DNA of 64,000 nt, taken from Escherichia phage JS10. Made by a program: the position numbers and the translations under genes. The DNA lies in the sequence record EU863409; one strand, written 5' to 3'. Within the stretch, counting starts at the first letter, position 1. The number at the start of each line of letters is the position of its first letter. Below are positions 44,153 through 55,980 of this stretch, in pieces. Below the pieces are notes generated by a model. That model was not told the origin of the DNA. It saw nothing but the letters and a program-made list of their open reading frames with translations, and did not search any database.

Positions 44153-44160
44153 TATAAATA
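44153..44160 (+). promoter_or_regulatory. Late promoter TATAAATA for the tail fibre operon
   Basis: Exact TATAAATA about 33 nt upstream of the gp34 ATG. Confidence 0.55.
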
Positions 44161-44192: not shown

Positions 44193-47100
44193 ATGGCTGA
44201 TATTTTAAAACCTGCATTCCGTGCTACATCCGGACTCGATGCTGCGGGCGAGAAAGTTATCAATGTTGCCAAAGCCGATTACAATGTACTAGATGATGGC
44301 GTCAACGTTGAATTCTTTATAGATGAGAACACCATCCAGGCGTACGACGAGACGCGCGGATATAAGAAAGGGTTTGCCGTAATCCATGACCAACGTATTT
44401 GGGTTGCTCAACGTGATATCGCTGCACCATCTGGAACTTTTGTACCCGGTTATTGGACTGCTACCCGTACTGACCCTAAATGGATTACAGTAGCATCTCC
44501 TACGCGCCAGTTGGCTTCCGGTGAATATATTGCGGTGGACTCAGCTGCTAGCTTTACTACATTTACTCTGCCTCCTAACCCTACTGATGGTGATACCATT
44601 GTAATCAAGGATATCGGTGGCCGTGTAGGTTATAATGAAATCAAGGTTCAATCTAGTTCTGCTCCAGGCGGCGGTAATCAGAAAATTGTTCGATTTGGTA
44701 ACCAGTTCTCTGAAACTCTGATAACCAAACCTTTTTCTTATAACATGCTTATCTTTGCTAACCGTCTTTGGCATTTCTGGGAAGCAGGTAACGAAGAACG
44801 TGGTATTCGCGTAGAGCCTAATACTGCACAGTTCCAAGCTCAAGCGGGTGATAACGTTTTACGTCGTTATACTTCAGGTGCAGTAATTAAATTTACTCTT
44901 CCTAAGTATGCGAACCAAGGTGATATGGTTAAAACCGTAGATATCGATGGTCTTGGAAGTAAGTTCCACTTAATCGTTGAAACCTTTGATGCATCGTCTT
45001 CATTAGGTAAGCCTGGTCAGCATAGCATGGAATTCCGTACCTCTGGTGATGGGTTCTTTGTTTATAACTCTGTTGAAAAAGTGTGGTATGTTTGGGACGG
45101 TGACCGCCAAACTCGACTGCGTGTTATTCGTGATGACGTAGAACTTTTGGCTAACGAAAGTATTATTGTTTTTGGTCCTAATAACACAACTCCACAAACT
45201 ATTAATATCACTTTACCTACTAGCGTAGCACAAGGCGATACTATTAAAATCGCATTGAACTATCTTCGTAAAGCACAGACAGTAAATATTAAGGCTGCTG
45301 TAGGTGATAAAATTGCTTCTTCGGTCCAATTGCTCCAGTTCCCTAAACGTTCTGAATATCCACCAGATACTGAATGGGTGTTGAATGACGTATTGACCTT
45401 TAATGGTAATATAAGTTATACCCCGGTTATTGAACTGAGTTATATCGAAGACACCACTACAGGCGGTAAATATTGGGTTGTTGCCCAGAACGTTCCTACG
45501 GTAGAACGTGTGGATTCTAAGGATGATTTAACTCGTGCTCGTCTTGGTGTTATTGCCCTTGCGTCTCAGACCCAGGCAAACGTCGACCATGAAAATAATC
45601 CTGAAAAAGAACTTGCAATTACTCCGCAGACTTTAGCTAATCGTGTTGCCACTGAAACTCGTCGTGGTATTGCTCGTATTGCTACGACTGCTCAGGTGAA
45701 CCAAGACACCACTTTCGCTTTCCAGGATGATTTGATTATTTCTCCTAAGAAATTAAACGAACGTACTGCAACCGAAACTCGTCGTGGTGTAGCCGAAATT
45801 GCTACGCAACAGGAAACTGATGCTGGTGTTGACGATACCACCATTATTACTCCTAAGAAGCTACAGACGCGCCAGGGCACTGAAAGTCTTTCAGGTATTG
45901 TAAAATATACCTCTACGGTAGACACCACTCCTGCGACTGCTAGGGACACTGTAGGTACTAACGTTTATAATAAGAACGTAGGCAATTTGGTTATTTCTCC
46001 TAAAGCTTTAGACCAATATAAAGCTACTCAAGCCCAACAAGGTACGGTATATCTTTCTACCCAGTCAGAAGTTAATACCGGACAATCTGCTAGCGGATTT
46101 GCTAACAGTGCAGTTTCTCCTGAAACGTTGCATGCCCGTGTGGCTCTTGATACTCGTACAGGGTTAATTGAAATTGCTACGCAAGTAGAGACAGATACTG
46201 GAACAGATTATACTCGTGCGGTAACGCCTAAAACGTTAAATGATAGGAAAGCTACGGAAGGATTGACTGGTATTGCTAGAATTGCAACCCAAGAAGAATT
46301 TGATGCAGGCACGTTAGATAATGTTATTTCAACTCCGTTGAAAATTAAAACAAGACTTAATGATACTGCTAGAACTTCTGTCTCAGCAGCCAGCGGTTTG
46401 ATTGAATCAGGAACCTTATGGAACCATTATACACTAGATATTAGAGAAGCAAATGAGACCCAACGTGGTACCGCTCGTCTGGCTACCCAGACCGAAGTCA
46501 ATGTTGGCACCGATGACAAAACCATCATCACTCCTTTGAAATTACACTCTAAAAAATCTACTGAAAGTTCTGAAGGTATTATTCGTGTTGCAACGAATAC
46601 CGAAACCACTGCAGGAACTTCTAAAGTTCTGGCTGTAAGCCCTTCTGGTTTAAAATATGTAGTACAGTCCGAAACCACTTGGGAAGCTACTGCACTTCGC
46701 CGTGGATTTGTTAAATTGACCGAAGGTGCTTTGACTTACTCAGGAAATAAAGTTACCGGTTCTGGTGTTAAATTTAACTCAGGTACAGGCCTTTATGAGA
46801 ACGACGATACTGTTCTGAATGCAGCCAACTATCCTAAAACAGGTTATGCGGTTTCATCTTACGAGATGAATAAAACTTTACAGAACTTTTTACCTATAAA
46901 TGCTACGGCTGTGAACTCCGAGAAATTGGATGGCCTGGATTCACTTCAGTTCATTCGTAGAGACGTCGACCAAACGGTTAATGGTTCTTTAACCCTAACC
47001 AAACAATTGAACCTGGCAGCCCCTCTGGTGTCTTCTAGTACTGCTACATTTACGGATGTTACAGCTACTAATTCTACCTTTGGTACAGTGAACGTTGTTA

Positions 47101-48161
47101 ACGGAACTAATAAATGGAAAATAACATCTCCATCTACTGGAACTACGTTAACTATCGGCGATACTACTAACGTATTGACATTAAACACTGCTACAGGTAA
47201 TGTTGCTGCACTTAATAACCTTAGCGCTGGTAATGATGTTCAGGCCAAAAATAACTTTGTGTTAAATGGAAGAACTATCGCAACCACCACTGGTGAAGCT
47301 TCTGGTGCTACATTGTCTTTAGGCGATAACTCACAGAATTTAGTGCTCAAAACTCTTGATGCTGGTAATATCGTAGCTAATGGTGGCGGTGCTTATAAAG
47401 TTCTTACCGAGAAAAACGCAGTAGAAATTGTAGACAGAAACTTTGTTAACCAAGCCGGTGATACAATGTCCGGTGTACTCCGTGTGAATGCCCCGGTTCG
47501 TGTATTTGGTACTAAGCCTACATTAGCTTCTCAGGTTCCTACGGCAGAGACAGTTGGCTTCTGGTCTGTTGATATCAATGACGAGGCTACTTATAGTAAG
47601 TTCCCTGGTTATTGGACTATGAAGACCAAACGTCAAGTTAATATTGACACGGTCCAAACTAAACCTGCTGGTGTTTCTGATGAGATATGGAATGCTTCTG
47701 GTTGGTTAACAGAAACCGGTGCATTTAGTTCTCCGGCCATTCGTTATCGTAACGAAGACGGTAGTTTTGGTGATGAAGTTCTTGGTACGTCTGGTCAGAA
47801 ATTACGTGGTGCTTGGTTTGATTATTCTGTTCGTGATAAGGAAGTTAAATATCCTGGTACATTAACTCAGTTTGGTAATACGTTAGATTCATGTTATCAG
47901 GATTGGGTGTGTTATCCTACAGGACTGAATGGCGGTACTATTCGCTATACCCGCACCTGGCAGAAGAATAAAAACGCATGGACTACGTTCTCAATGGTCT
48001 ATACGGCAGATAACCCTCCTTCTGCGGAAGATGTTGGTGCACTGCCGGCAGATAACGCTACAATGGGTAACATTACAATCCTCGATTGGTTGCGTATTGG
48101 TAACGTTCGCATTATTCCTGACCCAGTCACTAAATCCGTTAAGTTTGAGTGGATTGAATAA
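44193..48161 (+). CDS. 34: long tail fibre proximal subunit gp34
   Basis: 1322 aa; many copies of the tail-fibre repeat (ETRRG[IV]A.IAT...E..G.DD...I.P..L); synteny. Confidence 0.9.
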   Translation: MADILKPAFRATSGLDAAGEKVINVAKADYNVLDDGVNVEFFIDENTIQAYDETRGYKKGFAVIHDQRIWVAQRDIAAPSGTFVPGYWTATRTDPKWITVASPTRQLASGEYIAVDSAASFTTFTLPPNPTDGDTIVIKDIGGRVGYNEIKVQSSSAPGGGNQKIVRFGNQFSETLITKPFSYNMLIFANRLWHFWEAGNEERGIRVEPNTAQFQAQAGDNVLRRYTSGAVIKFTLPKYANQGDMVKTVDIDGLGSKFHLIVETFDASSSLGKPGQHSMEFRTSGDGFFVYNSVEKVWYVWDGDRQTRLRVIRDDVELLANESIIVFGPNNTTPQTINITLPTSVAQGDTIKIALNYLRKAQTVNIKAAVGDKIASSVQLLQFPKRSEYPPDTEWVLNDVLTFNGNISYTPVIELSYIEDTTTGGKYWVVAQNVPTVERVDSKDDLTRARLGVIALASQTQANVDHENNPEKELAITPQTLANRVATETRRGIARIATTAQVNQDTTFAFQDDLIISPKKLNERTATETRRGVAEIATQQETDAGVDDTTIITPKKLQTRQGTESLSGIVKYTSTVDTTPATARDTVGTNVYNKNVGNLVISPKALDQYKATQAQQGTVYLSTQSEVNTGQSASGFANSAVSPETLHARVALDTRTGLIEIATQVETDTGTDYTRAVTPKTLNDRKATEGLTGIARIATQEEFDAGTLDNVISTPLKIKTRLNDTARTSVSAASGLIESGTLWNHYTLDIREANETQRGTARLATQTEVNVGTDDKTIITPLKLHSKKSTESSEGIIRVATNTETTAGTSKVLAVSPSGLKYVVQSETTWEATALRRGFVKLTEGALTYSGNKVTGSGVKFNSGTGLYENDDTVLNAANYPKTGYAVSSYEMNKTLQNFLPINATAVNSEKLDGLDSLQFIRRDVDQTVNGSLTLTKQLNLAAPLVSSSTATFTDVTATNSTFGTVNVVNGTNKWKITSPSTGTTLTIGDTTNVLTLNTATGNVAALNNLSAGNDVQAKNNFVLNGRTIATTTGEASGATLSLGDNSQNLVLKTLDAGNIVANGGGAYKVLTEKNAVEIVDRNFVNQAGDTMSGVLRVNAPVRVFGTKPTLASQVPTAETVGFWSVDINDEATYSKFPGYWTMKTKRQVNIDTVQTKPAGVSDEIWNASGWLTETGAFSSPAIRYRNEDGSFGDEVLGTSGQKLRGAWFDYSVRDKEVKYPGTLTQFGNTLDSCYQDWVCYPTGLNGGTIRYTRTWQKNKNAWTTFSMVYTADNPPSAEDVGALPADNATMGNITILDWLRIGNVRIIPDPVTKSVKFEWIE

Positions 48162-48169
48162 GAGGTATT

Positions 48170-49291
48170 ATGGAAAGATTTATGGCAGAATTTGGACAAG
48201 GATATGTCCAGGTTCCTACATTATCTGAAAACAATGCTGTAAGGTATAAACTTAGTATAGCTGGTAGTTGTACTAAGTCTACTAAAAAAGCGTATGTTAA
48301 ATTTCAAGATGGGGACTTCGGTCCCCAGAATTTTCAAAATGGACTAAACCTTATAGAAATTGATGTTAGTGCCGAACCTAAAGTGGTGGCTAACAAAACT
48401 TATAGCTTTACAAAAGATTTTGATGTTATCTCTGAAGCTTTTATTACTTACATAAGTTCAATACCAGCCAATAGAATAGTTTGTTTAGTATCTTCTGGTA
48501 GATTAAATGCTTCACAAAATCTTATTGATTGGTTCCGTGCAGCAGGAAGTACCGCATTTCCATCTAAATGGCTAATAGACCGCTTCGAGCCGTCTTATTC
48601 AGCCTTTTACGTGTCCGGTAGAAATACTATAGTGATGGAACACGTCCTTTATAATGATGGGGTGTTTGTTGAAGATGTTTCTACACCATTAGAAGTCGTT
48701 TTTGACGATATCAGTGATGTAGGCGGGACCGGGTATCCTATAAGAATAGTAGAAGATGAAAACACTTATCTAAGTAATGGTGGAGAAGAAATAAAACGTT
48801 TCCCTACCGAATCTCCTACTACTCCTTGCGCCGATTATAACATGAAGCCTGGGGAATTCTTTTATCTTAAATTCCAAATGATGTGTGACCAGGAATTAAA
48901 AGATTTAGGGACCTCTCAGATGTCTGTTAGATTTTTTAATGCCTCAGGTGCTTTAACAGGGTCGGTTAATATGGAAGTTCCACCTAATGTCCCTGCTGGG
49001 TCTTGGATGACTTTTGAGCGGGTAATTGAAGTTCCTGCTAATACTGAAACATTTACATTGTATGCAAGAAAAACAGTGGCCGATGGAGTCGGCGGTGTAC
49101 GTAATGTGATGTTTGGGGAAGTATCAGAGCCAGAATCACAGCCTAAATCAGCCGAATTTGGTGTAAATGGTATTCGTATGAATTTCGGTACCGAAACTAA
49201 GAATATGGGTACTACCATAGCCCAGTTATACGATAAAACAGGTACTAAACCGGGACAGGTTTGGGTGTCTGAATTTAGAGAAAAATATTAA
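48170..49291 (+). CDS. 35: long tail fibre hinge connector gp35
   Basis: 373 aa; synteny and size. Confidence 0.8.
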   Translation: MERFMAEFGQGYVQVPTLSENNAVRYKLSIAGSCTKSTKKAYVKFQDGDFGPQNFQNGLNLIEIDVSAEPKVVANKTYSFTKDFDVISEAFITYISSIPANRIVCLVSSGRLNASQNLIDWFRAAGSTAFPSKWLIDRFEPSYSAFYVSGRNTIVMEHVLYNDGVFVEDVSTPLEVVFDDISDVGGTGYPIRIVEDENTYLSNGGEEIKRFPTESPTTPCADYNMKPGEFFYLKFQMMCDQELKDLGTSQMSVRFFNASGALTGSVNMEVPPNVPAGSWMTFERVIEVPANTETFTLYARKTVADGVGGVRNVMFGEVSEPESQPKSAEFGVNGIRMNFGTETKNMGTTIAQLYDKTGTKPGQVWVSEFREKY

Positions 49292-49320
49292 GGAACCTTC
49301 GGGTTCCTTTTTCGTTTTCT
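49292..49320 (+). terminator. Rho-independent terminator after gene 35
   Basis: ggaacc-ttcg-ggttcc hairpin followed by tttttcgtttt. Confidence 0.6.
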
Positions 49321-49367
49321 ACAGCCATAAATATATAAAAAGGCTATAACTCCCAAAGGAAACTCAA

Positions 49368-50015
49368 ATGGCAGATTTAAAATTAGGTTCTACAGCAGGA
49401 GGTTCGGTATTATGGCACCAAGGTAATTTTCCTTTAACGCCTGTATCAAACGACCTTCTTTACAAAACATATAAAGTTTACACCGAGTATAATAAACCTC
49501 AAGCAGTTGATAACGATTTCGTTTCAAAAGCTAACGGTGGTAATTATCAGAACAACGTGTATTTTGAAAAAGGTTTGACCTTTAATGATACTAATGGATA
49601 TGGTATTAAATTAGGAGCAAGAACCGCCGGAGCCCCTTTCACAGCTTCTTTCCGTATTAAAGGTGCTTTTGGATATGAAACGGAAGATGGTACTCCGTTT
49701 ATGATATTTGACCCAAGTACAGTAGTAGGTGCTAAACGCCTCACAGTAATGGGTGATTCATTATTCCGTCAAGTTTATGACGAATCAGGTCGTGTATTCA
49801 GCCCAGGCAACACCCCTACTAAAGCTCAAGTAGGATTATCGTTAGTAGATAACGCAAAACAGGTCCAAATAAATAATACTAACATGCAAACAATGACCGG
49901 AGTACTTGCTGCTCCTAACTTTATTTCGCTGAATCCGGCCTCTGACGCAGGACACGTTCCTCGTTTTGACCAGATTGTCATTAAAGATTCTATTCAAGAT
50001 TTTGGTTATTATTAA
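49368..50015 (+). CDS. 36: long tail fibre distal connector gp36
   Basis: 215 aa; synteny and size. Confidence 0.8.
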   Translation: MADLKLGSTAGGSVLWHQGNFPLTPVSNDLLYKTYKVYTEYNKPQAVDNDFVSKANGGNYQNNVYFEKGLTFNDTNGYGIKLGARTAGAPFTASFRIKGAFGYETEDGTPFMIFDPSTVVGAKRLTVMGDSLFRQVYDESGRVFSPGNTPTKAQVGLSLVDNAKQVQINNTNMQTMTGVLAAPNFISLNPASDAGHVPRFDQIVIKDSIQDFGYY

Positions 50016-50023
50016 GAGGCATT

Positions 50024-53000
50024 ATGGCTACTTTAAAGCAAATCCAATTTAAAAGAAGTAAAGTGGCCGGTGTACGTCCGACACCGGCCCAGTTGGCTGA
50101 AGGCGAACTGGCTATTAACTTAAAGGACCGTTTACTTTTTACTAAAGACGATACTGGAGCGATTATCGACCTTGGCTTTGCTAAAGGTGGTAATATCGAC
50201 GGAAACGTTATTCATAACGGTAACTACAACCAGACCGGCGATTACACTCTTACGGGTGTATTTACTCAAATAGGTGATTTTAATCTCAACGGTATTGCTC
50301 GCGTAACTCGTGATATTATTGCTGCAGGTCAGATAATGACACACGGTGGCGAACTTATTTCTAAGAGCGCCTCAACTTCTCACCTTCGTTTCTTTGACGG
50401 TAATGATCGCGAACGTGGCATTATTTTTTCTCCTAATAATGCAGGAGCAACCAACCAAATAGTTAATATTCGCGTACAGGATTATTCTACTGCAAGCGAA
50501 AGCACTTATGCATTTTCAGGTAATGGTTTATTTTCTTCTCCTGAAGTTTTTGGATGGAAATCCGTATCAACTCCAGTAATTTATACTAATAAAGTTATTA
50601 CCAATGGTAAAGTTGCTGGCGATTACGATATATCTTCATTATCAAATAACACTCCATTGGCAGAAAGCGAAACGGCTATTAACCACCTCCGTGTTATGCG
50701 AAATGCTGTAGGAGCAGGTATTTTCCACGAAGTTAATGTTAATGACGGAATAGCCTGGTATTCCGGAGATGGCTTAGACACTTATCTTTGGTCGTTTACC
50801 TGGTCCGGTGGATTGAAAGCCGGTCATTCTATTTCTGTAGGTCTTCCAGGTGGCCCTAAAGGATATTCTGAATTAGGGACGGCTTCAATTGCTCTTGGTG
50901 ACAATAACACTGGTTTGAAATGGAAACAAGACGGCCAGTTCCATACAGTTAATAATGGAGCTTATACTTTACTTACAACTCCGACTGAAGTTACAAGCCT
51001 TAAACAGTTAGTTGCGGGTTATTCAACCAACGGTTCTGATTTAATTCTTCCTACAACTCAAAACTATCCATTAGTTATTGTTAATACTACTAATGATAAA
51101 AACGGCTTCGGCGACGGTCAAACTCTTTTAGGTTATCACCAAAGCGGTAAATATCACCATTATTTTCGTGGTAAAGGCGTAACAAACGTTAATACCGATG
51201 GTGGGTTGTTGGTTACTCCTGGTAACGTTGAAGTCCGTGGTGGTTCTGTTAATATTGACGGTCGTGGTAACGCTTCCACTGTGCTTTTTAAAGGAAGTAC
51301 CTCAGGATATAGTTCAGTTGATAATATAGAGCTCAAAGGTTGGGGTGACACTTTTAATACGGTAGGTGGTTCTCGTAAAAACGTATTGGAAACATCTGAT
51401 GCTACCGGCTGGATGCACTATATTCAACGAAATACGGCAGGTAAAGTCGAATCTTATTTAAACGGCACGATGAACATCGCCGAAGGATTGTCTGTCAGTC
51501 AAGATACATCCTTAAAACGCAATCTGTATGTTTCCAATGAAATTAAAGTCCGCGCTGCTAGTGGTCTTCGTATTTGGAATGATAAGTATGGTGTTATTTT
51601 TCGAAATTCAGAAGACCAGCTGCATATTATCCCAACCAATGTTAATGCTGGTGAAAGTGGCGGATTAGGTCCATTACGCCCATTAAGTATTATGCTAGAC
51701 ACCGGTCGGGTTAAAATCCCTAACTTAGAAGCAGACCAGGTTTCTTTTAAGGGCACCGGTGTATTGGAATTCCCTAATAGTAGCGGCGCATCTTATGCCA
51801 ACCAGAACACGACTAAAGCTCCGTTGTATCAAGCACTTGATGCTGCAACTCAAGCATTTTACCCTATTACTAAGCAGAAAAATGTTGATTCGAACGTAAC
51901 TGTTACTCAAGGTATGGACCGAGCTACAAGTGAATATCGAATTGTTGCTCAAGGTGATTTGCTTGGTGATGGTGATGCTACAGGATTAAAATATTGGCGC
52001 TTTACCAAAGAAGGTAACTTCATGGCTCAGAACCGCTTATATGCAGGTACAGCTTTCATGAATACTGATGGTAATATTGCAGGTTCTATTTGGAACAAGT
52101 ATAGCGGTGCTACTAACCTTGACGCAGCGGTGAGTACTCGTGTGGCTAAAGAAGGCGACACAATGACAGGCCGCTTAACTCTTAAAACCAATTCAGACGC
52201 TATTGTTATTGATTATCCGGCAGATGAAGCTGGTTATGTTAAGGGTAAAAAAGGTGGTGTTGATAACTGGTATGTAGGTAATGGTGGTGCTGATAACGGT
52301 TTAGCCTTCTGGAGCTTCCAATCCCAAGGTGGTATTAATATCACCCATAATGGTGAGGTTGTTTTATCTCCACAAGGTGCTTCAGTATTCAATATAAACC
52401 GAGACCGTATTTATATGAACGGTTCCAACTGGATTGCACATAAATCTGGTGCATGGGGTGACCAATGGGGCTTAGAAGCACCTTATTTCCTTGAGTTTGG
52501 TAGTGTGGGTGAAGACAGTTATTATCCCATTATTAAAGGCCGATCTGTAATTAGTGGTCAGGGTTATACTACTTCTGTTGAATTAGGCATGCGTCGTACT
52601 CCACAAGCATGGGGACAAGCGATAATTCGAGTAGGTAATGCCGAGCGTGGCGACGGTCCTGTAGGTATTTTCGAATTCCACTCTAGCGGTTTATTTTACG
52701 CCCCGACTTTAGTCCAGACTCCTGCCATTGGTGTTGGTACTGTTAACGGATTAGGCTCTCCTAGTATTGCTATCGGTGATAATGATACTGGATTAGTTCA
52801 TGGTGGTGACGGCCGAATCAATATGGTTGCAAATGGTATACATATTGCATCTTGGTCTAGCTCTTACCATATCCATGAAGGTCTTTGGGATACCACTGGT
52901 GCTTTGTGGACTGAGCAAGGAAGAGCTATTATGTCTTATGGTCATCTTGTTCAGGCAAACGACAGCTATTCTACATATGTCCGTGATGTTTATGTCCGTT

Positions 53001-53335
53001 CTGATATTCGCGTTAAAAAAGACCTCGTTAAATTTGAAAATGCTTCTCAGAAGCTTTCCAAAATTAATGGTTACACTTATATGCAGAAACGAGGCCTGGA
53101 TGAGGAAGGTAATCAGAAATGGGAACCTAACGCCGGTTTAATTGCTCAAGAAGTTCAAGCTATTTTACCTGAATTGGTTGAAGGTGACCCTGATGGTGAA
53201 GCTTTACTTCGTTTAAACTATAACGGTGTAATTGGTTTAAATACAGCTGCAATCAATGAGCATACTGCTGAAATAGCAGAATTGAAATCAGAGATTGAAG
53301 AACTTAAAGCTTTAGTTAAATCATTGTTAAAATAA
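50024..53335 (+). CDS. 37: long tail fibre distal subunit gp37 with C-terminal intramolecular chaperone-type domain
   Basis: 1103 aa; C-terminal ...[30 protein letters not shown]... then coiled coil; SDxRxK is the signature of self-cleaving fibre chaperone domains. Confidence 0.85.
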
Positions 53336-53366
53336 TAAGAGGGGCTTAGGCCCCTTGGAGGTTTAT

Positions 53367-54140
53367 ATGGCAGTTGAAGGACCGTGGGTAGGATGGTCTG
53401 CAAGGGTACAAACTGGGGACCCTTGGATGGCAGGAGCAGCCGTAAGATTAAGAATGGGTGTTCCATTTTGGATGAGTAATATGATAGGTCGATCTGTTGA
53501 AGTAATTCACACGCTTGGGGCCGACCATAACTTTAACGGGCAATGGTTTAGAGACCGTTGTTTTGAAGCCGGCGGTGCTCCTATAGTGTTTAATATCACA
53601 GGCAACTTAGTATCATATACTAAAGATGTTCCATTGTTCTTTATGTACGGTGATACTCCTAATGAATATGTTACTTTGAATATTCATGGTGGTGTTCATA
53701 TGTGGGGCCGAGGTGGCAACGGTTCAGTAAATGGAAGCCCAGGCACTAATGGCGGTGACGTAATCCAAAATGATATTGGTGGGCGACTTCGCATTTGGAA
53801 TTATGGTGTGATAGCCTCCGGTGGTGGTGGCGGCGGTGCCGTATCATTACAGAATAGTTGGCCTGCAAATTCTACAGCAGGTGGCGGTGGCGGCAGACCA
53901 TTTGGTCTCGGCGGCGGTGGTGTTAATTGGCCAGGTGGCAATGCTAGTTATGATGGTCCAGGTGGCGCCGGTTACACTTCCCAATTCGGCGGAGGCAATG
54001 GCGGTGATGCTGGAGGTTGGGGCGGAGATGGATGGGGTAATAACTTATCCAGGTCAGGTGGGGGTGCTCCTGGTAGAGCAGTATTCGGTTCCTCCCCATC
54101 ATGGGGCGCTACAGGCACTATCTACGGCTCATGGTTATAG
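53367..54140 (+). CDS. 38: gp38 tail fibre adhesin (T2 type, glycine-rich motifs)
   Basis: Start at ATG with GGAGG RBS (track ORF begins at 53355); about 257 aa; several poly-Gly tracts ([21 protein letters not shown]). Confidence 0.8.
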
Positions 54141-54151
54141 TACATAAGCGC

Positions 54152-54159
54152 TATAAATA
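54152..54159 (+). promoter_or_regulatory. Late promoter TATAAATA upstream of holin t
   Basis: Exact TATAAATA about 20 nt upstream of the t ATG. Confidence 0.5.
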
Positions 54160-54177
54160 TCTTTAAAGGAGAAAAGT

Positions 54178-54831
54178 ATGGAACCAAAAGTAGGATTTTC
54201 ATTATCAGACCTACTTTTTGGACTTCTTGATAGAATTTTTAAAGATACTTCTTCCGGGAAAGTAGTTTTTTCCCGGGTCCTAGTCGTAATATTATTGTTC
54301 TTTATGGCATTAGTTTGGTATAAAGGCGAATATATTCTAAACTTTTATAAAGAGACAACTTATGCCTCTTATACTGAAATGATTAGACAAGACCAGGACA
54401 ATAGATTTAAAATTGCGGCTATCGAGCAGCTCCGAATAGTGCATTCTTCTTCAGGCGCAGACTTCACAGCAATATATTCTTTTAGACCAACCAACATGAA
54501 TTATTTTGTGGACATGGTTGCTTATGAGGGTAAATTACCGGAAACGGTAGACGCAAAAAATACGGGAGGATTTCCGATTGACAAAACGTCAGTAGAGTAT
54601 ATGGCGGGAGTTAACGGGAACTATTTTGAATCAAGTACAGAAACTGTGTTCCTTCCTACAAAGAAGAAAACCCATTTCACGTATATGTTTTCATGTCCGT
54701 TTTTTAATTTGGATAACATCTATGCCGGTTCGATATCATTATACTGGTATGACATCAAACCGGATTTAGGATTTCCTAGACTTTCGTCTATGTGTGGTCA
54801 GGCCGGGAGGACATTAGGTCGAACTCGTTAA
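54178..54831 (+). CDS. t: holin T
   Basis: 217 aa; N-terminal transmembrane segment and large periplasmic domain; ...SDLLFGLLDRIFKD...YSFRP.NMNYFVDMVAYEGKLP... matches T4 T. Confidence 0.9.
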   Translation: MEPKVGFSLSDLLFGLLDRIFKDTSSGKVVFSRVLVVILLFFMALVWYKGEYILNFYKETTYASYTEMIRQDQDNRFKIAAIEQLRIVHSSSGADFTAIYSFRPTNMNYFVDMVAYEGKLPETVDAKNTGGFPIDKTSVEYMAGVNGNYFESSTETVFLPTKKKTHFTYMFSCPFFNLDNIYAGSISLYWYDIKPDLGFPRLSSMCGQAGRTLGRTR

Positions 54832-55103
54832 AAATTGGAGGTATACATCATTAGATAACGGTGTATATCTTCATACCCTTCATTAAATTGCTCAATAAGA
54901 GTATCACGTTCATCTTCAGTTAAAGACTTAAAGAGTTTATTAAAAGATAGACCGTTAAGTTCCTTTCCATGTTCATTACGAATACCTAACTCATTCAAAA
55001 AGGCAATAAACTCATCACGACGTTGCATGATGTCTTCACAATCCGTTTTAATCAAAATGGAAACAATAGTAGCAATTTCGGAAACGATTTCAATTTTAGT
55101 CAT
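54828..55103 (-). CDS. asiA: anti-sigma70 protein AsiA
   Basis: 91 aa; ...IVSILIK...FIAFLNELGI...EQFNEGYEDIHRYLMMYT matches T4 AsiA. Confidence 0.85.
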   Translation of the reverse strand: MTKIEIVSEIATIVSILIKTDCEDIMQRRDEFIAFLNELGIRNEHGKELNGLSFNKLFKSLTEDERDTLIEQFNEGYEDIHRYLMMYTSNF

Positions 55104-55134
55104 AATATTCTCTTCAATTCAGTACGACATTATC

Positions 55135-55174
55135 TGATAAGGCTATAATAACATATCCTTAGTAATTGTAAACA
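55135..55174 (-). promoter_or_regulatory. Early promoter for asiA (GTTTAC-N17-TATTAT)
   Basis: On the - strand: GTTTACaattactaaggatatgtTATTATagcc. Confidence 0.5.
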
Positions 55175-55317
55175 TGTTCTTCGTTCTTTTTAACATATTC
55201 CTGATACATTTCTTCAATAGGTTCCTGGAACTTAAAATCAGCTCCTAGGAATTCCTCAAAGCACTCCTGCTCACGTGTACGCATGCCTGATACGGTGTTC
55301 TCTAAGTTATGACTCAT
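55159..55317 (-). CDS. possible small acidic ORF (about 52 aa) between arn and asiA
   Basis: ATG-initiated ORF MSHNLENTVSGMRTREQ...; overlaps the asiA promoter, so doubtful. Confidence 0.2.
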   Translation of the reverse strand: MSHNLENTVSGMRTREQECFEEFLGADFKFQEPIEEMYQEYVKKNEEHVYNY

Positions 55318-55327
55318 AGGTTAATCC

Positions 55328-55609
55328 TCAATCAATGTAGTCTTCTAAACCGAAACCATCAATTTCTTCTTGAATTTCTCTTAATACTTGTTCTTCATCT
55401 AGACCGGACCCAAAAGTTACTTTAACATACCCGGGGCGTTCACCAGAGAACCGAATTGTGTATTCTGGTTGGATATAACCAAAACTACTATCCAAATCAC
55501 AAAGGATTTCTGCATAGGTTTCGTCGCCAACAGCAGCATGAATTTTTAAAAGTTCATCAATGAGAATAACTAGTTCAGTTGCTTCGCATGCCTGGAGTTT
55601 AGTAATCAT
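55328..55609 (-). CDS. arn: Arn-like acidic protein (anti-restriction, by synteny)
   Basis: 93 aa strongly acidic protein next to asiA, as T4 arn. Confidence 0.5.
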   Translation of the reverse strand: MITKLQACEATELVILIDELLKIHAAVGDETYAEILCDLDSSFGYIQPEYTIRFSGERPGYVKVTFGSGLDEEQVLREIQEEIDGFGLEDYID

Positions 55610-55698
55610 AGCCTTTACCCTTATGCTTCTGTTTACGTTTGGACTCTTTAAAGTTTTTCTTCTTGTCCTTATGGACTGAAGCCTTATTGAAATCGTGC

Positions 55699-55980
55699 TT
55701 AGCTACCAGATTGATCACGTAATTTCCTTAATTGATATTCAAGAGAACTGATAATTTCTTTATTAGTTGCAATATACATATCACGTAGGAACGGCTTCAA
55801 CCCTTCCATATTCCCATGGATTGTCTTAGAACTAATATTCTTTATATATTCATGGTCTAATGCATCCCAAGCCGGCTGGTTGACGTAAGTTCCCCAGTTG
55901 TCTTCAACCATAACATTCAGACGTTTAATGTGGTTGATATGGGCTTCGATTGCATCAATCTGGAGTTGTTTAAGATTCAT
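55699..55980 (-). CDS. hypothetical protein
   Basis: 93 aa ORF. Confidence 0.5.
   Translation of the reverse strand: MNLKQLQIDAIEAHINHIKRLNVMVEDNWGTYVNQPAWDALDHEYIKNISSKTIHGNMEGLKPFLRDMYIATNKEIISSLEYQLRKLRDQSGS

Follow-up and report, generated by a model that had tools for sequence, protein, structure and literature searches.

The gp37–gp38 locus of Escherichia phage JS10, very probably a T2-type distal tail-fibre tip module

It is from phage T2, with its processed gp37 and its gp38 adhesin, that this type of tail-fibre module has been familiar since the 1980s, and two structures of such tip modules have been solved, that of phage S16 in 2018 and that of phage PP01 in 2026. [quoted passage not shown] In the solved homologues, the glycine tracts of gp38 work as a polyglycine-II structural core, with the loops being separate from it (PMC12892980, PMC12032242), and in PP01 it is through loop E that gp38 binds the OmpC of O157 (PMC12892980). 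In phage T4, gp37 itself bears the receptor-binding tip without having an S74 domain, and gp38, which is unrelated, serves as a chaperone and is released once assembly is over (PMC12892980, PMC3157838).

Here, we analysed a window of 64,000 nucleotides, this being the whole stretch of DNA taken from Escherichia phage JS10 (sequence record EU863409), a phage of the genus Dhakavirus with an annotated RefSeq genome, whose entries YP_002922590.1 (gp37) and YP_002922591.1 (gp38) match exactly both proteins of the locus. Very probably, this gp37–gp38 locus encodes the distal tip of a T-even tail fibre in its standard T2-type form, as read from its domain identities, its conserved catalytic residues, its fold, its gene order, and its linkage across relatives, and no result of the present analysis contradicts this identification. 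The module type is already known and the JS10 locus is already annotated; there is no new element here. The features of the locus are the following:

50024..53335, plus strand: gene 37, long tail fibre distal subunit precursor (1103-aa ORF, 118.7 kDa)
50024..52999, plus strand: predicted mature gp37, aa 1-992, 106.4 kDa (site set by alignment to S16)
52997..53002, plus strand: predicted autocleavage site Arg992^Ser993, CGT TCT (alignment to the S16 site and to GA-1 3GUD)
53000..53332, plus strand: intramolecular chaperone of the Peptidase_S74 type, aa 993-1103, 111 aa, 12.3 kDa (Pfam PF13884)
53219..53329, plus strand: predicted long C-terminal helix of the chaperone, aa 1066-1102, heptad-patterned (AF2 model, heptad count)
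53339..53361, plus strand: intergenic hairpin with a 7 bp stem and a 4 nt loop (53339-53356), abutting the GGAGG of gp38 (sequence, fold prediction)
53367..54140, plus strand: gene 38, receptor-recognising adhesin, 257 aa, 26.1 kDa (Pfam GP38, Gp38_N)
53367..53498, plus strand: N-terminal attachment domain of gp38, aa 1-44, with Trp7, Trp20, and Trp35 (Pfam Gp38_N)
53499..54137, plus strand: receptor-binding domain of gp38, aa 45-257, beta-helix and polyglycine-II sandwich (106-homologue alignment, homology to 9V85 and 6F45_D)

In JS10, gene 38 lies directly after the chaperone-ended gene 37 and before the holin gene t, an order shared by MN04, JS98, and EcWhh-1. This linkage extends to the related loci with a parsable g37-g38 junction (51, which collapse to 41 distinct types), all of which carry a chaperone-terminated fibre gene and, immediately after it, a gene with the N-terminal domain of gp38, as well as the motif [S/T]D....K followed by a tail of 92-117 aa; by tblastn, a chaperone match was found just upstream of the gp38-like gene in 49/51 viral-contig loci and in the three annotated relatives (3/3). 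These 51 viral-contig loci were used for the statistics because the homologue search with the chaperone segment gave only 19 proteins, mostly fragmentary, which are adequate for a profile and not for broad statistics.

At the junction itself, the stop codon of gp37 is doubled (TAATAA, 53333-53338), and the ORF that follows (53355/53367-54140, plus strand) encodes 261 or 257 aa, depending on the start codon. The TTG at 53355 was rejected in favour of the ATG at 53367, which has a Shine-Dalgarno GGAGG at 53357-53361 and gives the MAV... beginning common to the homologues. The hairpin at 53339-53356 was considered as a regulator or terminator and discarded, given that its predicted fold of -16 kcal/mol is no better than that of shuffled sequences (z-score only -1.1) and that there is no U-tract on the plus strand; Rfam gave no match over 49000-55700. 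The late promoter sequence TATAAATA is found before g34 and before t and is absent before g35-g38, with a total in the window that is no more than expected by chance. The minus-strand ORFs within g37 and g38, none of them longer than 85 aa, were treated as spurious.

The gp38 protein matches the Pfam families GP38 (PF05268, E 3.5e-81, 272.6 bits) and Gp38_N (PF21721, E 3.1e-19, 69.1 bits), both with a cut-off of 25, besides PHROG 2056 (E 2.9e-105), the receptor-binding domain of PP01 gp38 (PDB 9V85, E 2e-73), and S16 gp38 (6F45_D, E 1e-48), and it is 59% identical to T6 gp38 and 52% identical to M1 gp38. A previous sequence-only reading of this DNA had taken gp38 for a glycine-rich adhesin of the T2 rather than the T4 type, and the receptor for a target of gp38 and not of gp37; both proposals are borne out here, the second one because of the close homology of gp38 to the S16 and PP01 adhesins of known structure. 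The Gp38_N match covers aa 5-44 of the 261-aa TTG ORF, that is, aa 1-40 of the 257-aa protein, and in 31 diverse homologues Trp7 and Trp20 are invariant, while Trp35 is conserved in at least 90%. By the role described for S16, this attachment domain would dock on the gp37 tip, and its identity correlates with that of this tip (rho 0.42) and does not do so with the identity of the receptor-binding domain of gp38 (rho 0.05-0.10). In the latter domain, the glycine motifs are separated by hypervariable loops at aa 118-128, 158-171, 186-198, 199-207, and 221-230.

Glycine makes up 25.7% of gp38 overall and 34.8% of aa 120-257, with runs of six residues at 53820-53837 (GGTGGTGGTGGCGGCGGT), five at 53880-53894, and four at 53910-53921, in addition to two runs of three and ten of two; the first two runs are indeed where the sequence-only reading had placed them, around 53820-53840 and 53880-53900. 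That reading had also suggested slippage at these GGT/GGC codons as a means of altering loop lengths, in which case the runs would be simple-sequence contingency sites changing loop length and host range. The presence of three runs of four to six glycine codons, together with the different segment lengths around the third run among homologues, would fit this idea, but as DNA repeats the runs are trivial: no perfect trinucleotide repeat goes beyond (GGT)3, Tandem Repeats Finder detected no tandem arrays in gp37-gp38, and the direct-repeat search of the same region gave only imperfect Gly-codon matches of 11-23 nt. Moreover, in the alignment of 106 homologues, the segments with the first and second runs are constant in length in 104 and 105 of them, respectively, conservation of the glycine motifs is about 99%, and the indels gather between the tracts, in hypervariable segments that vary in sequence and length; the apparent run length of 6-9 among homologues shifts via substitution of neighbouring residues, not via indels. 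By homology with the solved structures, the JS10 tracts would form the polyglycine-II core and not loops, and T6 adhesin function is lost when individual glycine motifs are deleted (PMC3157838). Run slippage was also considered as the origin of the frameshifted C-terminus of gp38 in the Bp7 record, and it was ruled out there, since the two frameshifts are single-base deletions lying outside the Gly-codon runs, and most likely errors of the record. The slippage claim is not supported, and we consider it very improbable that these runs act as contingency sites for the loop lengths of JS10 gp38.

Besides the adhesin reading of gp38, a second alternative comes from GenBank, where JS10 gp38 and several relatives are named “distal long tail fiber assembly catalyst”, as if gp38 were a T4-style catalyst absent from the virion and gp37 were the one binding the receptor. 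To this we would give even less credit than to slippage, considering that gp38 matches the adhesin families and the solved S16 and PP01 adhesins (E 1e-48 to 2e-73), that Pfam at E<=0.01 returned only GP38 and Gp38_N for it and no match to the T4-type tail-fibre assembly chaperone family, and that gp37 has its own intramolecular chaperone. The names in RefSeq and UniProt are “tail fiber protein; host specificity” and “Receptor-recognizing protein gp38”, and the old name was carried over from T4, whose gp38 is unrelated (PMC3157838, PMC12892980).

Turning to the fibre protein, gp37 matches PHROG 1699, “long tail fiber protein distal subunit”, over its full length (E 0), and its Pfam domains are Gp34_trimer, gp37_trimer, and Peptidase_S74, the fibre trimerisation domains being upstream of the C-terminal chaperone (aa 993-1103 of 1103). 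The Peptidase_S74 match (PF13884) covers aa 993-1052 and model positions 1-57 of 58, with E 2.2e-12 and a score of 47.5 bits, where the cut-off is 22; as protein features, this domain and the GP38 domain of gp38 are both well beyond chance. The motif SDIRVKKDL occupies aa 993-1001 (nt 53000-53026), 111 residues from the C-terminus, and contains both Ser993 (nt 53000-53002) and Lys998 (nt 53015-53017); this segment aligns with VSSDRRIKKDI of S16, and in 3GUD, the chaperone chain released in GA-1, the aligned Ser of SDERHK is the first residue. The homology with S16 gp37 (6F45_A) extends over aa 909-1103 (E 7e-46), where aa 909-992 align to the S16 distal tip, and the last ~85 residues of mature gp37 are the predicted tip where gp38 docks. 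The homologue profile search matched 6F45_A, the MyRF ICA domain 7DC3 (E 3.6e-12), the tail fibre 8JOV, and GA-1 3GUD. In 17 chaperone homologues, the Asp and Lys of the motif are invariant and the Ser is present in at least 90%, and in all 51 parsed related loci the Ser or Thr and the Lys at +5 are kept, with identities going down to ~28%.

The AF2 model of the chaperone, which shows a single chain although the domain functions as a trimer, has a pLDDT of 76 overall and ~90 in the chaperone part, with low confidence in its first 28 residues. In this model, strands precede one long helix formed by the last ~37 residues of gp37 (106-142 of the 143-aa model, pLDDT ~90), whose best heptad register has I, L, or V at 8 of 11 a/d positions, and the best Foldseek matches are 7DC3 (E 1.8e-6, probability 1.0), 3GUD (1.0), and 3GW6 (0.98). 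This helix is expected to build a trimeric helical bundle, an architecture described for such chaperones in PMC9608196. The S74-type chaperone, the Ser-Lys dyad in SDIRVKKDL, and the coiled coil after it, all three proposed in the sequence-only reading, are thus in agreement with the Pfam match, the 6F45_A homology, and the fold, with the alignment of Ser993 and Lys998 to the S16 cleavage site, and with the predicted helix, respectively; the comparison with S74-family chaperones gave matches by Pfam, profile, and Foldseek alike. That the S74-like domain is a degenerate, uncleaved remnant left on gp37 is about as implausible as the assembly catalyst, in view of the conservation of Ser993 (as S/T), Asp994, and Lys998 across related loci with identities to ~28%, of a domain score well above the Pfam cut-off, of the gp38 docking surface of S16 being exposed only after cleavage (PMC7917993), and of the known processing of T2 gp37 (Drexler 1986, cited in PMC3157838).

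With a cleaved gp37 and an adhesin gp38, the module would work as follows, where the cleavage of gp37, the location of gp38 in the virion, and its binding to a receptor are all inferred from the homologues of S16, PP01, T2, T6, and Bp7, which have been solved or tested, and, for gp38, also from LHE83; in the searchable literature, we found no JS10-specific experiments and no fibre or receptor data. gp37 would be synthesised as a 1103-aa precursor, whose last 111 residues, the S74 chaperone, would join three chains through the C-terminal helical bundle and nucleate the folding of the trimeric fibre. Then, Ser993, activated by Lys998, would cut the Arg992-Ser993 bond in every chain, and the departure of the 12-kDa chaperone would uncover the hydrophobic tip of the mature 992-aa gp37. 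A single copy of gp38 (257 aa) would dock on this tip through its N-terminal Trp-bearing domain, and its C-terminal part would be a beta-helix and polyglycine-II sandwich, having the glycine tracts as a rigid core and the hypervariable loops in contact with an E. coli outer-membrane protein.

As to the identity of this receptor, the gp38 of Bp7 has been experimentally assigned as the receptor-binding protein for LamB/OmpC (PMC10987938), and JS10 gp38 is 94% identical to PHB12 over aa 45-257 and 95% identical to Bp7 over aa 45-222. Because of this similarity to Bp7-type phages, LamB/OmpC is our best guess for JS10, and a weak one, given that there are ~10 substitutions between the JS10 and Bp7 receptor-binding domains, several of them in hypervariable loops, and that single loop changes can switch the receptor in the gp38 adhesin family (PMC12032242). 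The attachment domain of JS10 gp38 is of the MN04/RB69-like type, whose partner is a gp37 tip different from that of Bp7 and PHB12, and a loop patch at aa 199-207 would have been exchanged with respect to EcWhh-1 and IME281, between flanks that are 95-98% identical. We suggest only tentatively, and with more doubt than confidence, that JS10 gp38 is a natural chimera of an MN04/RB69-type attachment domain and a Bp7-type receptor-binding domain, with a single-loop exchange at aa 199-207. The recombination idea of the sequence-only reading is, in this respect, plausible from the visible mosaic patches, and it is not new, having been published. Recombination at conserved motifs is reportedly an idea of Tetart et al. 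from 1998. It was also proposed by Trojet et al. 2011 (PMC3157838). If the DNA of the glycine motifs were the crossover site, the locus would exemplify a clean natural case of loop-by-loop adhesin shuffling, and if the chimera and loop exchange were true, a LamB/OmpC host range would be predicted for JS10.

The discovery value of this locus is small, with a known module type, solved structures, and an annotated genome. Nevertheless, the misleading GenBank name “assembly catalyst” is corrected, the LamB/OmpC receptor guess is testable, and the exact coordinates of the cleavage site, attachment domain, and loops, which are required for re-targeting this group of therapeutic-candidate phages, are provided.

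Among the known systems, the gp37-gp38 of S16 (PDB 6F45; Dunne et al. [quoted passage not shown] It differs from JS10 in the length of the chaperone (113 vs. 111 aa), in the residue before the scissile Ser (Ser in S16, Arg in JS10), in a ~12-aa insertion that the JS10 gp37 tip has relative to S16, and in the hypervariable loops, with S16 binding Salmonella OmpC. The closest solved structure is that of PP01 gp38 (PDB 9V85; PMC12892980), nearly identical in the beta-helix and glycine motifs over ~aa 40-190, whereas it departs from JS10 gp38 in loops D and E and in the C-terminal third, and its specificity is not transferable to JS10 because loop E is precisely the OmpC contact of PP01. In Dhakavirus Bp7 and Mosigvirus PHB12, the receptor-binding domain is alike, while the attachment domain of JS10 is of another type; in another Dhakavirus, LHE83, the blocking of adsorption by an anti-gp38 antibody has already been assayed (PMC10987938). 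T4 shares with JS10 the gene positions 34-35-36-37-38-t and the fibre function, but JS10 gp38 has no match to the T4 gp38 type. Finally, the chaperones of the K1F endosialidase and the GA-1 neck appendage (MEROPS S74; 3GW6, 3GUD; Schulz et al. 2010) and of MyRF ICA (7DC3) belong to the same Pfam family and fold, with the Ser and the Lys at +5 conserved and a long helix coming after the strands at the C-terminus, at an identity of only 12-24% and with a tailspike or a transcription factor as the client, instead of the T-even long tail fibre that is the client in JS10.

The gp37-gp38 pair lies within a T-even long-tail-fibre operon of the classic type, which spans 44193-54831 on the + strand and comprises the following genes:

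44193-48161, + strand, g34, 1322 aa
48170-49291, + strand, g35, 373 aa
49368-50015, + strand, g36, 215 aa
50024-53335, + strand, g37, 1103 aa
53367-54140, + strand, g38, 257 aa
54178-54831, + strand, holin gene t, 217 aa

By exact-sequence look-up, gp37 matches YP_002922590.1 and gp38 matches YP_002922591.1 without a difference, both being proteins of Escherichia phage JS10, and the flanking DNA is 97.5% identical to that of phage JS98 (genus Dhakavirus); therefore, the window belongs to a phage already sequenced and annotated. The true start of g38 is ATG 53367, not the TTG at 53355 given by a mechanical ORF list; GGAGG stands before it at 53357-61, and it yields the MAV... N-terminus common to all homologues. 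Separately, residues 57-130 of gp35 (48170-49291), a tail-fibre hinge protein, carry an unexpected Pfam label, ILEI (interleukin-like EMT inducer/FAM3-type domain; E 1.9e-6), with a score barely over the gathering threshold (28.7 vs. 27 bits).

T4-type late-promoter boxes (TATAAATA) are found at 44153-44160, about 30 nt upstream of g34, and at 54152-54159, about 20 nt upstream of t, with the motif count over the whole window being no higher than chance. None was found in the window before g35-g38, which suggests that g38 is co-transcribed with g37. A GC-rich hairpin of 7 bp (53339-53356) lies between the double stop of g37 (TAATAA) and the g38 Shine-Dalgarno sequence, its stability being no greater than that of shuffled sequence (z -1.1) and a U-tract being absent on the + strand. 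Right after the g35 stop lies a perfect 8-bp palindromic hairpin at 49290-49309 (AAGGAACC TTCG GGTTCCTT) with a T-rich tract behind it, an arrangement that resembles a terminator on either strand.

The sequence-only reading had proposed that gp37 ends in a self-cleaving S74-type chaperone with the Ser-Lys motif SDIRVKKDL followed by a coiled coil, and the motif and a predicted long C-terminal helix were both found. The motif occupies residues 993-1001 (nt 53000-53026), 111 residues from the C-terminus, at the start of a Pfam Peptidase_S74 domain (“chaperone of endosialidase”, aa 993-1052) with a score of 47.5 bits (cut-off 22). Residues 909-1103 align with the S16 gp37 construct in PDB 6F45 (E 7e-46), whose VSSDRRIKKDI falls opposite the JS10 motif segment, and from this alignment cleavage is predicted between Arg992 and Ser993. 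In S16, the last 113 residues of gp37 are an intramolecular chaperone, and their removal exposes the surface on which gp38 docks (PMC7917993). In the proposed comparison with S74-family chaperones, a homologue-built profile matched the MyRF ICA domain 7DC3 (E 3.6e-12), the tail fibre 8JOV and the released GA-1 chaperone 3GUD, whose chain starts exactly at the aligned Ser. An AlphaFold2 model of residues 961-1103, with pLDDT of about 90 across the chaperone part, had 7DC3, the K1F endosialidase chaperone 3GW6 and 3GUD as its best Foldseek matches, and predicted with high confidence a single long helix for the final ~37 residues, in which 8 of 11 heptad a/d positions are I, L or V. Across 17 homologues, the Asp and Lys of the motif are invariant and the Ser nearly so. 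Taken together, the Pfam, 6F45, profile and fold matches and these conserved residues give the gp37 C-terminus every testable defining feature of an S74 chaperone domain, while cleavage itself we infer; by prediction, the precursor has a mass of 118.7 kDa, mature gp37 one of 106.4 kDa and the chaperone, once released, one of 12.3 kDa.

That gp38 is a T2-type adhesin, and not of the T4 type, was likewise borne out. The Pfam families GP38 (E 3.5e-81) and Gp38_N (E 3.1e-19) together span its full length. Among solved structures, it comes nearest to 9V85, the receptor-binding domain of PP01 gp38 (E 2e-73), and to S16 gp38 (6F45_D, E 1e-48), and the proposed comparison with T6 gp38 gave 59% identity, with 52% to M1 gp38. 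The Pfam search found no link to the T4-type gp38 assembly chaperone. In GenBank, the label “distal long tail fiber assembly catalyst” survives from T4 nomenclature; RefSeq and UniProt already name the protein for host specificity or receptor recognition. [quoted passage not shown] The conserved attachment-domain tryptophans W7, W20 and W35 are all present in JS10.

Glycine makes up 25.7% of gp38, with runs of mixed GGT/GGC codons at 53820-53837 (G6) and 53880-53894 (G5), exactly where the sequence-only reading had located them, and at 53910-53921 (G4). Its suggestion that slippage in these runs could change loop lengths is not supported, because the runs are short and imperfect, with no perfect repeat longer than (GGT)3, the segments holding runs 1 and 2 hardly vary in length, the runs are assigned to the core, not the loops, by homology to the solved structures, and deletion of individual Gly motifs inactivated the T6 adhesin (PMC3157838). 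Tandem Repeats Finder reported nothing in the gp37-gp38 region. In an alignment of 106 full-length gp38 homologues, segment length was constant for run 1 in 104 and for run 2 in 105; apparent run length varied solely through substitution of adjacent residues, and protein length varied in the loops between the runs. The deposited Bp7 g38 (NC_019500.1, 1260-1392 of the fetched locus) has two single-base deletions relative to window 54030-54140 and PHB12, giving a frameshifted, unrelated C-terminus of ~45 residues, and the record of phage vB_EcoM_RZ also appears frameshifted at the protein level; both are probably record errors, and the Bp7 deletions lie outside the Gly-codon runs.

The other half of that suggestion, recombination at the Gly-rich g38, is already an established proposal, at or near conserved motifs of g38 (Tetart 1998; Trojet 2011, PMC3157838), and mosaicism is visible in the JS10 fibre region. 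The DNA is JS98-like across g35 and g36 and for ~500 nt into g37 (86-100% identity, vs. only 61-66% to the annotated relative MN04 at 50224-50523) and MN04-like from ~50670 to ~55300 (95-100%, vs. 43-80% to JS98), with a breakpoint at 50500-50670, inside the N-terminal part of g37. Within g38, the N-domain DNA is 98% identical to MN04 and only 55-60% to JS98 and locus L006; identity to the annotated relative EcWhh-1 falls to 67% in a loop patch (aa 199-207), with flanks at 95-98%; and the receptor-binding domain shares 94-95% protein identity with Bp7/PHB12, vs. 52% for the attachment domain. Farther downstream, ~300 nt at 55324-55620 are absent from MN04, JS98 and EcWhh-1 (0-11% identity in pairwise alignments); they hold a minus-strand ORF (55328-55609, 93 aa) for a small PHROG 8202 protein of unknown function, and are an accessory-gene insertion with asiA on one side and arn-region genes on the other.

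We fetched 51 viral-contig loci, each encoding a gp38 relative. In 49 of the 51 and in all three annotated relatives, tblastn matched the JS10 chaperone directly upstream of the gp38-like gene, and a motif scan located [S/T]D....K with a tail of 92-117 aa behind it in 51/51 loci with a parsable junction, representing 41 distinct types. In pairwise comparisons, identity in the gp37 tip correlates with identity in the gp38 N-terminal domain (Spearman 0.42) and not with identity in the receptor-binding domain (0.05), which fits a docking unit of tip, chaperone and attachment domain that would move together while the specificity domain is freely exchanged. In loci L039-L054 (viral contigs of ~30-183 kb), genes from locus position 1501 onward encode a class of shorter proteins (158-174 aa) with the attachment domain alone, without a glycine-rich domain; since these follow an S74-chaperone-ending fibre gene in the parsed loci, they suggest that alternative tip proteins use the gp38-type docking system. 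In Escherichia phage vB_EcoM_005 (1146-1466 of its locus), the chaperone match begins at query residue 17, the Ser-Lys motif is absent in that frame, and two pieces are annotated there as “long tail fiber distal subunit”; g37 looks frameshifted or split in that genome.

As for the receptor, Bp7 gp38 is reported to be the protein that binds LamB and OmpC as receptors, and the related Dhakavirus LHE83, with different loops, uses OmpA (PMC10987938). Because the JS10 receptor-binding domain shares 94-95% identity with that of the Bp7 type, LamB/OmpC would be the best guess, a tentative one owing to some ten substitutions relative to Bp7, several of them in loops. The gp37-gp38 pair is a well-known type of module, already known and correctly read, in an already annotated phage.
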